In this document: positions 52,497-62,148 of the stretch, in pieces
Numbering within the stretch: position 1 is the first letter of the stretch
Layout: the number at the start of each line of letters is the position of its first letter
Assembly: GCA_951406725.2 (NCBI GenBank)
Contig: OX597819.1
Span: forward strand, 104,532,001-104,596,000
DNA: 64,000 nucleotides
Source of the DNA: Octopus vulgaris
Taxonomy: Eukaryota
Direction: 5' to 3'
Translations under genes and position numbers: made by a program
The notes under the pieces: model-generated
Told to the model about the DNA's origin: nothing
Database searches by the model: none
What the model saw: the letters and a program-made list of their open reading frames with translations, nothing else

Positions 52497-52968
52497 TTTA
52501 CATGTATGATGTATTTTCAGGGATAATTTATTTCATCTCACTACCTTAGCTTTTTAGTTTTGCATATTAATTCATCCCTCCCACCAAAATGGGCAATTAC
52601 ATCCCCTATCCCAAATAATAATGATCACCATTTACCTCCCCTTCATTCACAAATCCCCGTACATAGATGGGCTAAAATCGGAAGAAAATACGAAATTACA
52701 ATAATTTCAATGTCATGATTAGCGAACGCGAAACCGGTCGACAAACACAATACTCTTTTACTTATTATATATATATATATATTCATTTCCAAGTAGGTTT
52801 ATATATATATATATATATATATATATATATATATGCATATATGCACACACACACACACACATATATATATATATTTACATGTATGATGTATTTTCAGAGA
52901 TAATATATTTCATCTCACTACCTTAGCTTTTGAGTTTTGCATATTAATTCATCCCTCCCACCAAAATG
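52497..52968 (+). mobile_element. PLE pseudo-LTR-type unit (377-bp period, about 95-bp direct repeat) containing an HHR
   Basis: 52497-52591 repeats at 52874-52968 with about three mismatches. Confidence 0.7.
52711..52743 (+). ncRNA. Minimal type I hammerhead-like motif with A3-U8 core
   Basis: UGUC AUGAUUA GC-GAAC-GC GAAA CCGG UC GACA: 4-bp stem I, palindromic ACCGGU stem III, canonical GUC site. Confidence 0.72.
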
Positions 52969-52969
52969 A

Positions 52970-53330
52970 GTGGACTCTATAACCACTAAAGACACCGTTT
53001 CGACGAAGAAATACGTGGGCCTTACAGAGGGTAATTTCAAGACCAGGTTCAATAACCACATCTTGAGTTTTAGGCACTGGAACAAAAGAAAAGCGACAAA
53101 ATTATCTAATCATATTTGGTCTTTAAAAGATAAAGATGTCGATTATAACATCCTTTGGAAGATTTTGGCCAAATGTAAGCCCTACACCAACGGCAGCGGA
53201 AAGTGCGACATGGAGAGATGGTTTATCTAGAAAAGCAGCTTAGACCCTACTACATGTCTAAACTCAAGGACAGAACTTTTCGGATCATGCCCATATGTGA
53301 CAAAATTTTTGTTACGATTTTGGTCCCCTA
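52970..53330 (+). pseudogene. GIY-YIG endonuclease C-terminal fragment of a PLE
   Basis: KYVGLTEGNFKTRFNNH...LSNHIWSLKD...WKILAKCKPY...KCD..., then CLNSRTELFGSCPY after a stop. Confidence 0.8.
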
Positions 53331-53956
53331 AAGAAAACAGATAGAACTTGCTTTCTATATTATGTCCCAAAAAGTTTTTTTATCTCATTATACCTTTTAT
53401 TATTTCATATATTTTTATATTTTTTCACACGTAATAATTTTTTCTGTACTCTTCTATCCTGCATTTTTTCCTGTGCCTATATAGACGTGTATATAGATTC
53501 ATTTGTACACGTGTGGAAATATGTATGAGTGGGCAGTTTTAGATGTGTGCGTGTGTGCGGTCATAAGAATGCATATATATATACACGTTTTTACTTAGTA
53601 TTTAGTTCGTATGTGTGCGCAGGCAGGTTTGTGCGTGTGTGTATGTGTGTGTGCATATCAAGATATACTTAAAAAATTCAATATAGAGATTATAGGTTTT
53701 CAAAATAACGGACTTTTAATGGACACCGAATATTAATATAAAAGGTAATAAGGTATATTCCATATACAGCTCATTCAAAAGATGGATGGAGCATAATAAA
53801 AATGTAACTGGATAAACATATTTTCTGTTAAGTACCAGAAGCAATATATACGTATACATACATACATACATACATACATACATACATACATACATACATA
53901 CATACATACATGCATACATACATACATACATACATACATACATACATACATACATG

Positions 53957-57772: not shown

Positions 57773-59284
57773 TCTATGTTTTACTATATTTTACTGTATA
57801 TATTTGACTATTTCACTACACAAGAGCAGAAGGTTCGCAATGTTGTGAGAACGCCGAAAATATGTCTTGTATTTGCATTTTGGGTTCAATTATCGCTTAG
57901 GTTAACTTTGCTTTACAGCTTTACAGCTTTTCGGGAAGCCATAAATAAAATACCAGTCTAGTACTGGTGTCGATGGTATCTACTAGTTTTTTTCAAAATG
58001 ACTGGTGTTCTACGTAAGAAAGTTATTTCACTATAGAATATAGCAGTAGTAGCAGTTGTGGCTGTTAGAGATAACAGTAACGTTTGATGTACGTAGCAGT
58101 GTTTATAGAAGTAGAAATGACAGTGATAGTGGCTATAGCATTAGTACACTCAGCAGTGGTCGCTGTGATCGTGTTGCCGTTGAGTGTTCCATACCTCGAT
58201 ATAACACAGGATCAAACTTAGGGAATTAATTTACCATTGCATTAAGAAGGCATGAAGACATCTGGCTTTCGTTAGTGGATTGCCTTGTGGTGTGTGTGGG
58301 AAATACGTCTGTCTACGCCTGCGTCAGTCTATATGTGTATATCTGCACCTGCCTCTGTATGTATCTATGCGTTTATGTAAGTGTACGTATCCGTATGTGA
58401 CTGTTGGTGTGGATGGAAATTGTATGTTTGAATAAGAATGAAGAGGCATTCACACTTGTATACGTATTATGCGCATTTTCGATGCATATATCTGTATGAA
58501 AGAGAATAAGTGGTTATCCATGAAATTGAAGTCATACATACTCATATATCTGCACACATATACACTAATATATATGTTTGTATATAAGCGTACGCATTTG
58601 TGAGTAATTATACATTTGTGTGAACTCATCACTTATTGCAAATTATAAATAAAATAATACTATATGACTGTATATTCATAACTCAAATATATAGTATATT
58701 GTAGATGATAGCGCCTTATTGGATAACGTGTATGCATGTATGTGTGTGCGTATATATATATATATATATATATAAGAGCGTATGTTCAAAACGTAAAATA
58801 CTTTCTCACTTTCCCGAGCGTGAAACTAATACACCTGCTTGTTGTTTATACACCTGTCTTCGTCTTTTGTTTTTCTGTAAATTGTTAATATATATATATA
58901 TAAATAAATTTGAAATTTAAAATTTAGGTCTAGATAGGAGACATTAAAATGCGGCATCCAAACCATGGTAGTGTTCCTGCAGAAAACTTTCACCACTTAT
59001 GATTACCAGACGTCATCCGCGGTACAGTGCTTTCGCTGGTTCTACGTAAAGAATTCTTGGGTGAAAGTTGGGGATATTTAAAATGATTGACACAGAAGAC
59101 TGAGTGCAACTAGAAGCTTCACTTAGCACAACCGAAGTGATTTTTGTGCTAAATAAAGTTTCTAGTTTATTTCTAGTCCGTCTTTCCTATCAATCATGTA
59201 ATACACACACACACATATATATATATATATATATATATATATATATATATATATATATATATATATATATATACACATATATAT

Positions 59285-59446
59285 ACGAAAGAATACAGCA
59301 GGGATCACCACCCCCTGCCGGAGCCTCGTGGAGCTTTTTGGGTGTTTTCGCTCAATAAACACTCACAACGCCCGGTCTGGGAATCGAAACCGTGATCCTG
59401 CGACCACAAGTCCGCTGCCCTAACCACTAGGCCATTGCGCCTCCAC
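59285..59446 (-). mobile_element. 5' part of third-family tRNA SINE
   Basis: GGAGGCGCAATGGCCTAGTGGTTAGGGC...GGTTTCGATTCCC; aligns to 50950-51107. Confidence 0.85.
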
Positions 59447-59569
59447 ACACACACATATATATATATATATATATATATATATATATATATATATATATAT
59501 ATATATATATATATATACATATATATATATATATATATATAGAGAGAGAGAGAGAGAGAGAGAGAGAGT

Positions 59570-62148
59570 AGAAATGTGTTTTGAAAAAATTATAAAATAC
59601 ACGTGGAAGTGTAAGGGTAAAATAAGAAAAGTCAACGAAAATGCATATCGTAGATATAAAAAGACTATTTATGATAGGTAGCGACAAAAATATACATTTA
59701 GAGTATTAAGAGTCAAAAAGGTCATTATTATTGATGATTATAAGAAGTTAATAATAATGATAATAAGGTAAGGGACTGAAACGAACCAATTGGTTTTCGC
59801 GTTAGCTGTTCATTGTTTGAATAACACCGGTTAGTAGACGGTGTCAGGTCTAATAGTTCCTGAGAGAAAAGATTATTTGTAAGGGAGGTAAGTAGTTCAG
59901 GAATTAGAAATGTGAGTGATGTAGAAAGTGAATAGGGTTTAGTGGTTTAAATTGAAGAGTTAGTGGTGTTCTGTATTGAGTTGTGTATTCATATTTAGTT
60001 GGGGGAGAAATTTGTTGATGAAAAATGACTCTTTATTCAACCTTTGTTGCATTGTGGTGTTATGTGAGCATTGGTAAAATGGAAATATTTGGAAGTTGGG
60101 ATTACGATTCCTGGCACATCTTTCTATGTGTTTACTCACCTTTAACTGTCTGTATTGTGGGTGGCGGATTTGCTCTTTGTGAATGGTGATTCTTTGACGG
60201 AGCGAATTTCCTGTGTGCCCAATATAGAGTTTACCGCATCCTATGCATGTCATGACATAGATTACATTTGCCGAGGCGCAGGTGAAATTTGATTTGATCT
60301 TAAATATTTCTCCTTGTTTGAATTGGAAATCTGAACCCTCCAGAAGGTGGGGGCATGTTCCACAGTTGGAACGTCCACATTTTGTCACTTTTGGGCTCAG
60401 TAGTTAATGGGTAAAGTCTAGCGCTGGTTAGTATTCTTTTCAGTGACTTCGGTTGCTTTTTGCTTTTTATAATTTTATATAGGTTTAAAATTTCGTTCAT
60501 TGTTTTGTCTGCTGTGAGGATGGGGAGGTTTGGGGTGATAATGTTGAAGGCTTCGTTATTTCTAGGGTTATGTGTGGAGATGTACGGGAGTATTTTTAAG
60601 TCTTGTTTAGTATTTCGGCTAGTTTTCCTTAGTCTTTGTATATCTATTCCCTTAGCTCTTTTGATGCCTTCATTTACTAATGAGATTGGGCAGTGTCTTT
60701 TAGTTAGTGTAGATCTAAGTTCAAGGAGTCTATGTTCATGAGTGTATGTATCGGAAACTATGGTGCAGATTCTTTTTGCTAGGTTAAAGAGTATGTTGAT
60801 TTTTATGTGTTTGGGGTGGCAGGAGTTAAATAATAGCTATTGTTTAGAGTCTGTGGGTTTATAAAAGATGTCTGTTTCTATGTGGTTGTTAACTATTCTA
60901 ATTAAGATGTCGAGAAAAGGTAGTTGCTTACGGTTGTGTTCCATAGTGAATTGTATATTGCTGTGTATGTTGTTGAGCATTCTTTTAAAATCAAGGAGTT
61001 GATCCATGCTATCTTGCCAAAGTATGAAGCAATCATCTAAATATCTCTTCCAGTTCTCCTTTAAGTAGTAATTGAAAGAGGTGCCATATTTTTCTAGTGA
61101 TGATTGCTATAACTTAAGTTCGTGGTAACCCATTACGAGGTTTGCAATAGCTGGAGCAGCTCTGGTCCCCATTGCAATTCCGCATTCTGTCGATAGTAAT
61201 TAGTATCGAACAAGAAATGATTGTTCAACAGGACGAATTTCAGTGCTTCAATTATAAAATTGTGGTTAATTCGTCCTGGGATCTCTTCTGGGTGCTTTTC
61301 TAGCCAAAATGTGATTGCTTCTATACCATAGTCGTGTGGGATATTAGTGTATAGATTCACCACATCGAAAGACACCAGTAGAGTTCCGTCCTTTACTGTC
61401 TTCGGGAGGTGGTTCAGCATGTTTAGGTCATCCCTGATATAGCTTTTCACATATTTTAAAAGAGGTTTGAGTAATATGTCAAGAAAGTTACTCAAACGGT
61501 GGGTTTCGCAGGAAGGGCCAGCTATGATGGGTCTGAGTTTGAGGTCAGTAGGTGGAGGGACATTAATGCATAGGCTTGTAGAGACTTTGCAGGCTTCACA
61601 AATGAGTGGATTTTTATGTATCTTGGGTAATCCGTAGAATAGACTGGGACTGTATTTGAAATTGGATAGATAGTCAATTTCATGTGTTGTAAGACCCTTT
61701 CCATGAGTTTGGAGTAGGGAGGATAAATTTTTCAGTGTCTTCTGTGGGTTGTAATATGTTAGTTTTTCACAGTAAGTGTTATTTTCCAACATGGGAAGTA
61801 TTAAATTTTTGTAGTACTCTGTATCCATTAATACTACCGCACTTCCTTTGTCGGCTTCTTTAATAGTGAGGTTTATGTCATTTTTTAGCTCGACAAGGTC
61901 TTTCCATTCGTTTAAATTAAGGTTGGATTTGATATGTTGTTTTGGGATGGTATTGTAAGGAAAACAAGTTATGTGATCACAGAAAACATCGAGTGCTTTA
62001 TTTCTACCTTTTGTAGGAAGGTACTCACTTTTGTTTTTCACTATTGAGTCATCTTCACTGGTATAGTTGAAAAGAGCTTCTGTGAGGCGTAATTTACGGC
62101 AGAAGTCCAAAGTATTGTCCTTAATTTCATTTGGGTTCGGTCTGCGAA
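59570..62148 (-). mobile_element. Penelope-like retroelement (Neptune-like), largely complete ORF with frameshifts and stops
   Basis: FCRKLRL, IKEADKGSAVV, FYGLPKIHK, LRPIIAG, FDVVNLYTNIP, WKRYLDDCF, CGRSNCGTC, NVIYVMTCIGCGKLYIGHT. Confidence 0.93.
59779..59818 (-). ncRNA. Degenerate hammerhead-like motif in the PLE 3' terminal region
   Basis: AAACA AUGAACA GC-UAAC-GC GAAA ACCAAUUGGU UC GUUU. A3.C8 is a mismatch one transition from A3-U8 or G3-C8. Confidence 0.5.

Follow-up and report, generated by a model that had tools for sequence, protein, structure and literature searches.

The hammerhead ribozymes closest to those considered here are the minimal type I hammerheads of Penelope-like elements (PLEs) described by Cervera & de la Peña 2014 (PMC4209133). 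These ribozymes lie on the sense strand in the 3' terminal repeat, have a short stem I and a G10.1-C11.1 pair, carry a palindromic stem III through which they are predicted to act as dimers, and are known in Neptune elements; they cleave weakly as dimers, and U3-A8 covariation of the core has been reported in Schistosoma (PMC4209133). In Anolis, the hammerhead of a PLE requires the element protein, and swapping the 3-8 pair partly rescues cleavage (PMC11167929). Here, we describe a motif with all the structural features listed for the Cervera & de la Peña ribozymes in a 64-kb stretch of Octopus vulgaris DNA (contig OX597819.1, positions 104,532,001 to 104,596,000; 'the window'), where it occurs as copies 1 to 3, the latter two at the ends of the elements PLE-A and PLE-B. 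Judged by its sequence, it is a 3'-terminal minimal type I hammerhead motif of octopus Neptune-like PLEs, located on the sense strand.

A hammerhead motif at the 3' ends of octopus PLEs

The original prediction described three motifs as an ultra-minimal A3-U8 hammerhead type linked to coding Neptune-like PLEs, with one clean 33-nt copy and two decayed copies in the 3' ends of elements encoding reverse transcriptase (RT). The pattern AUGAN(U/C)A-GC-N4-GC-GAAA, which was taken from that earlier observation so that its match count is post hoc, has exactly three matches in the window, at 52715-52733 (+), 56662-56680 (+) and 59795-59813 (-), compared with 0.04 expected by chance, and the motifs are thus found at the predicted places. 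At least three matches were reached in 0 of 100 shuffles of the window, and allowing one mismatch in the pattern yielded no additional match in the 64 kb. A generic descriptor that accepts any Watson-Crick 3-8 pair gave four strict matches versus a mean of 0.07 in 60 shuffles. All three copies contain U4, G5, A6 and A9, G12, A13 and A14, the A15.1-U16.1 pair and an NUH cleavage site, the triplet being GUC in copy 1 and in the family of copy 2 and UUC in copy 3. The A3-U8 designation holds for copy 1 and for the PLE-A family to which copy 2 belongs, but not for copy 3, which itself has an A·C mismatch at 3-8; in relatives the pair is C-G. With A3/U8 the octopus core departs from the literal C3/G8 consensus of standard descriptors and Rfam models, and we therefore class it as a variant and not as a standard member of the PLE minimal type I hammerheads. 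An extra unpaired base between positions 9 and 10.1, which is common but not universal, is absent from the octopus motifs and their closest metagenome relatives. Over copy 1, Rfam gave no match to a hammerhead family at E<=10, and among the best 150 of 310 matches of the scan there were only microRNA (miRNA) matches driven by microsatellites.

Copy 1 is complete, as the original prediction had it, and consists of a 4-bp stem I (TGTC/GACA), the A3-U8 core (52715-52721), a 2-bp stem II in GC-N4-GC, GAAA and the palindrome ACCGGT, with a GUC site at 52737-52739 and a predicted cut 3' of C52739. When 190 nt upstream of copy 1 were compared with the PLE-A 3' region, the alignment scored 298 versus 185+-16 for shuffles, none of 500 shuffles scored as high, and 135 of 173 aligned bases were identical; a shorter comparison, restricted to 116 nt, gave a borderline result (27 of 1000 shuffles). 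Because its upstream DNA aligns with the PLE-A 3' region, we tie copy 1 to the PLE-A lineage, and this alignment indicates that it is the truncated tail of a PLE-A sister family; the remnant contains no open reading frame (ORF). A Hydra-like endonuclease at 52970-53227 was considered as the owner of copy 1 and rejected, since copy 1 sits upstream of it and aligns to PLE-A. This GIY-YIG fragment (+; PF01541, E 7e-4), which by eye we take to resemble Hydra-clade PLE endonucleases, is joined to a duplicate of the copy 1 upstream region (52382-52591 versus 52766-52968, 82%).

Copies 2 and 3 lie 293 and 147 nt, respectively, after the stops of the RT/GIY-YIG frames of PLE-A and PLE-B, both on the sense strand, in agreement with the predicted placement. 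Copy 3 has an A3·C8 core (59813-59807), a GC-N4-GC stem II, a 12-nt palindrome, a UUC site and a bulged 4-bp stem I. Both elements encode an RT followed by a C-terminal GIY-YIG endonuclease with CCHH, the C, C, H and H being conserved in the alignment, and in both the linker zinc finger CX4CxxC fits the Neptune-clade CX2-5CxxC found between RT and endonuclease; judged by eye, the linker spacing is nearer to the Neptune than to the Nematis rows of Craig 2021 Fig. S2. The proteins of PLE-A and PLE-B share 62% identity and are sisters in a 49-row tree with support of 100/99, which does not settle the position of the pair among relatives (L237 dropped, short overlap). The closest named protein to that of PLE-B is from Octopus sinensis (88%), followed by bivalves. 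The tree holds no named Neptune references; the label 'Neptune-like' is used here in the sense of domain order and linker, and Neptune itself is paraphyletic (PMC8557442). As for the link to coding elements, the motif does belong to families of such elements, but both ORFs in the window are 5'-truncated and interrupted by frameshifts or stops, and neither copy has an upstream pseudo-long terminal repeat (pLTR). The features are listed below.

Coordinates of the hammerhead copies and their host elements in the window
Feature	Position	Strand	Evidence
5'-truncated 3'-terminal remnant carrying copy 1, ending in (TA)n	52520..52765	+	alignment to PLE-A 3' region
Copy 1, intact 33-nt minimal type I hammerhead	52711..52743	+	pattern, descriptor, covariance model
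PLE-A, Neptune-like PLE, 5'-truncated broken RT-thumb-linker(CX4CxxC)-GIY-YIG ORF	54842..56369	+	multi-copy in 4/4 runs
PLE-A 3' terminal (pLTR) region, then (TA)n	56370..56746	+	
Copy 2, decayed hammerhead of PLE-A, core 56662-56668	56657..56691	+	family contigs
Copy 3, hammerhead-like motif of PLE-B	59779..59818	-	pattern match
PLE-B, 5'-truncated frameshifted RT-linker-GIY-YIG ORF	59960..62146	-	PF01541 E 8e-8

Conservation in the PLE-A family and in related elements

To place copy 2 in its family, contigs of four runs with four organism labels were aligned to 55900-56740 at 80% likeness, which gave 1,689-3,614 fitting contigs per run and sampled the PLE-A family. RNA data listed no carrier of PLE-A, which has no bearing on whether it is expressed. 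Copy 2 deviates from its family at one palindrome base (56684) and one loop II base (56671), and has lost three bases from the 5' arm of stem I. In each of the four runs, more than 99% of depth has G at position 56684 (31,594/31,840 and 143,038/143,261 are two examples; 42-76 contigs per run), so that both the palindrome and the GUC site are restored in the family, while the loop II base differs from the window copy in 80-95% of family depth. Every run recovers the missing stem I bases as an insertion (3-12 contigs, 3-24% of depth), and among the loose ends listed, those of 16 and 6 contigs join a full stem I arm to A3, from which we infer that the full arm would be the majority form. In three of the runs, T>G changes add up to 1, and G8 is therefore not present at 15% or more in those runs. 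Since the contigs restore palindrome, GUC site and stem I arm, they indicate that the PLE-A family carries an intact A3-U8 motif of which the window copy is a decayed version, as had been proposed for copy 2. We also looked for a separate canonical hammerhead that would replace the motif: there was none in the PLE-A termini, and a canonical core followed by a hammerhead fold was not found in the 3' regions of the three elements.

A metagenome search recovered 48 related PLE loci, 45 of them with an endonuclease match, and in 27 of the 48 a sense-strand hammerhead follows the endonuclease, the offsets measured being 69-540 nt. This set of 27 includes three pairs of near-duplicates and omits L194 (weak and distant), L223 (weak model match) and L195, L199, L205 and L209 (seen by eye only), none of which is A3-U8. 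Like the octopus motif, the relatives (L191-L238) occupy the same location and have 6-nt palindromes including ACCGGT and stems II of mostly <=2 bp; unlike it, their cores are C3-G8 (23 loci), U3-A8 (3) or C3·U8 (1) and never A3-U8 among the 27 loci, and a direct A3-U8 search across all 48 loci found none. Exact A3-U8 patterns were likewise missing from the metagenome and viral contigs, collections that may hold little cephalopod DNA, so that the pattern could well occur elsewhere, and protein-based locus searches of the viral contigs detected no relative. With looser patterns there were 103 matches in viral contigs and 87 in prokaryotic ones, palindrome and stem I occurring together in 0/103 and 0/87. 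Within this sample, the A3-U8 core is a distinguishing mark of the octopus sub-lineage, as far as these sequences go. Stem II, by comparison, is <=2 bp in 16 of the 27 relatives, where 2-, 1- and 0-bp forms with ordinary C3-G8 cores are common, and the tiny architecture is therefore widespread in this PLE group; the 2-bp stem II behind the term 'ultra-minimal' is real but does not define a type. The loci nearest by identity (L191, L193, L192 and L196, 43-46%) have ACCGGT and short stems II in common.

Two side observations concern these relatives. L191, apparently a full-length PLE, shows two identical hammerheads at 52-88 and 3751-3787, in both terminal repeats and 3.7 kb apart. L217, L220 and L231 (0 pairs) and L193, L221 and L236 (1 pair) carry C3-G8 hammerheads nearly without stem II, which are compensated by stems I of 5-10 bp and are smaller than the octopus motif.

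Between copy 1 and the copy 2 family form there are differences at 5 of 33 positions, and every one of them falls on N7, on loop II or on a single stem I pair where the two changes compensate each other; so favourable a placement is met in 402 of 237,336 cases (p about 0.002). The 3' regions of PLE-A and PLE-B upstream of the motif show no alignment above shuffles (124 of 500 as high), and despite this A3, GC-N4-GC and GAAA are kept in both. In a hand-picked set of seven motifs of equal length (two from octopus, five from the metagenome), both partners change in 9 of 10 pairs, 3-8 among them, and 95.7% of cells pair, versus 25-46% in slid controls; stems I and II show covariation, and G10.1-C11.1 is kept. 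A covariance model, R1, built from 15 non-octopus motifs ranked copy 1 first of 19 matches in the 64 kb (19.4 bits, E 0.007) and copy 2 fourth (E 0.87).

Predicted fold and competing explanations

Folding assigned the monomer with a one-pair stem III +2.5 to +3.5 kcal/mol, compared with -1.6 to -2.6 kcal/mol without it, while the palindrome duplex between two copies was calculated at -8.3 kcal/mol. The palindrome (6 nt in copy 1 and the PLE-A family, 12 nt in copy 3) permits a double hammerhead, and upon cofolding this was the minimum-energy dimer for the copy 2 family form and for copy 1 with its native flanks. We propose a model in which the C3-G8 pair of the core would have turned into A3-U8 in an octopus sub-lineage of Neptune-like PLEs. 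A single copy would be unable to close stem III; a partner could come from tandem pLTRs in one transcript or from a second transcript, and the two copies would join by their palindromes into a 6-bp stem III, forming a double hammerhead that cuts 3' of GUC. By analogy with other PLEs (PMC4209133), cleavage would free or trim the element RNA out of a read-through transcript, and it would likely be slow, restricted to dimers and probably aided by an element protein. What the sequences themselves establish is where the motif lies and how it is oriented, its form throughout the family, its covariation and its homology to relatives with C3-G8. As the family ribozyme motif of octopus Neptune-like PLEs it is well supported, and we consider it fairly probable that the octopus motif cleaves slowly and in a manner dependent on dimers and, probably, on protein.

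Several points weigh against cleavage as just outlined. In a type III hammerhead subjected to full pairwise mutagenesis, only the G:C swap rescued the 3-8 pair, other double mutants, A-U among them, having low activity (PMC9901934), which suggests that A-U would be a weak core. Copy 3, with its A·C mismatch at 3-8, escapes model R1 at E<=10, and bare copy 1 has a rival dimer fold that lies 0.7 kcal/mol lower than the double hammerhead (-14.0 versus -13.3). Copies 1 and 2 are homologous and so do not represent independent origins. As a gapped alignment, the stem I insertion reaches only the 3-24% of depth given above, and a C3-G8 subfamily may exist in the PLE-A family, our view of which covers the best 40 of 93 difference rows and 24 of 1,319 loose-end rows. 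The window also shows no tandem pLTR arrangement.

The mutagenesis result and the A3·C8 core of copy 3 would also fit a hammerhead descendant that no longer cleaves usefully and persists at the 3' end of the element as a structure for dimerisation or protein binding, as would the finding that cleavage by the Anolis hammerhead is dispensable for PLE insertion in vitro, with no RNA-seq reads ending at the cut site (PMC11167929). What makes us regard this as unlikely, though deserving serious thought, is that all other catalytic positions (U4, G5, A6, A9, G12, A13, A14, A15.1-U16.1 and NUH) are kept in three families, that the change at 3-8 is a double transversion preserving pairing, and that PLE-type motifs with U3-A8 and G3-C8 in the same window are also paired. 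It is also conceivable, but in our judgement improbable, that a dead ribozyme hitchhiked after its core changed in one active master copy that was then amplified without selection on the motif. Families inherit the sequence of their master, so uniformity among contigs shows no selection by itself, and Naiad PLEs thrive without canonical hammerheads (PMC8557442); on the other hand, the motif persists over three families, in which the 3' regions align only in part or not at all and the proteins have 62% identity, and the differences between copy 1 and the copy 2 family avoid the core. Hardly probable at all, finally, is that A3 is kept because the core contains an AUG start codon. AUG does open each of the three cores, and the start codon of the Anolis element PAc lies within its hammerhead (PMC11167929), but the frames opened by the octopus AUGs run for 28, 18 and 3 codons without any peptide in common outside the core, and the matching change at position 8 is left unexplained. 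Slow, dimer-dependent cleavage remains our preferred interpretation of the octopus motif.

Other elements of the window and comparison with known hammerheads

Further hammerhead-like sequences are present elsewhere in the window. Two copies of an inverted-repeat PLE-type remnant by (TA)n, at 17080-17381 (cores at 17244 on the minus and about 17257 on the plus strand) and 27473-27758 (core at 27693, minus), carry hammerheads with a G3-C8 core, a 4-5-bp stem II and the palindrome AATATT; the G3-C8 core is absent from the published hammerhead tables that we compared. At 30738-31023 (cores at 30868, minus, and 30893, plus), an inverted pair of minimal hammerheads with U3-A8, a 5-bp stem II and the palindrome AATT lies within a 93% inverted repeat ending in (TA)n, and the hairpin of this region caused the top false miRNA match in Rfam. 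A C3-G8 hammerhead-like motif at 62378-62414 (-), which has a 5-nt loop and lacks any stem II pair, was second-best with model R1 (E 0.023); its loop recurs in the metagenome locus L231, and the motif lies where an exact duplication of 178 nt (62213-62390 = 62713-62890) has its edge. This motif was considered as the true 5' ribozyme of PLE-B and rejected, as the sequence on either side of it differs from the PLE-B 3' end. At 14470-14511 (-), a weak C3-G8 core whose loop II is long is accompanied by a near-palindrome of 12 nt and may be a decayed hammerhead or due to chance. From the motifs in their translations, we take 20441-22600 (+) to be a 719-aa RT frame of the long interspersed nuclear element (LINE) type, 35003-35953 (-) a second non-LTR RT fragment and 17733-18380 (+) a hAT-like transposase fragment.

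As a naturally occurring motif in many copies, the octopus hammerhead lends itself to asking whether cleavage is indispensable in PLEs and how much weakness is tolerated. Should it cut, an A-U core would be viable in nature without tertiary contacts, and descriptors based on CUGANGA would miss part of the PLE ribozymes, a point relevant to accounts of PLE families that lack hammerheads; should it fail to cut, a dead hammerhead under selection would point to a second role. A broader proposal, which we put forward tentatively and hold to be possible but somewhat doubtful, is that the octopus lineage has fixed an active 33-nt A3-U8 hammerhead without tertiary contacts and that octopus PLEs use all four Watson-Crick 3-8 pairs, thereby tuning a dimer- and protein-gated ribozyme that CUGANGA searches miss.

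A3-U8 is absent from the Hydra and Chlamys table of PMC8557442, and the literature gave no description of A3-U8 or of an octopus or cephalopod hammerhead, a statement that the contents of Lünse 2017 and of Przybilski & Hammann 2007 could change. The accessible parts of PMC6765202, PMC6155905, PMC11014351, PMC3884650, PMC10085705, PMC2837043, PMC2920678 and a 2026 retrozyme preprint contain nothing that bears on A3-U8. The natural U3-A8 covariation and 2-bp stems II of Perreault 2011 (PMC3088659) are similar to what we find in octopus; in contrast, A3-U8 is unmentioned in the part of that paper available, and many of its hammerheads have tertiary contacts between stems I and II, of which the octopus motif shows no sign. 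The PAc hammerhead of Anolis is likewise a PLE hammerhead, and its 3-8 swap bears comparison with the octopus core, but it belongs to another PLE clade (Poseidon), has a natural C3-G8 core and was protein-assisted in vitro (PMC11167929). The small variants of Lünse, Weinberg & Breaker 2017, as represented by their title and by PMC6765202, share with the octopus motif a short palindromic stem III, cleavage as dimers and occurrence in PLEs. From the ribozymes of PMC4209133 the octopus motif differs in its A3-U8 core, found in none of the 56 representatives of Fig. S3, in its 2-bp stem II as opposed to 3-8 bp in the figure, and in having no extra base between 9 and 10.1. As far as the literature covered here goes, its novelty lies in the conserved A3-U8 pair, together with U3-A8, G3-C8 and C3-G8 motifs in the same window; the octopus motif is a core variant of the PLE minimal hammerhead and not a new type or ribozyme class.

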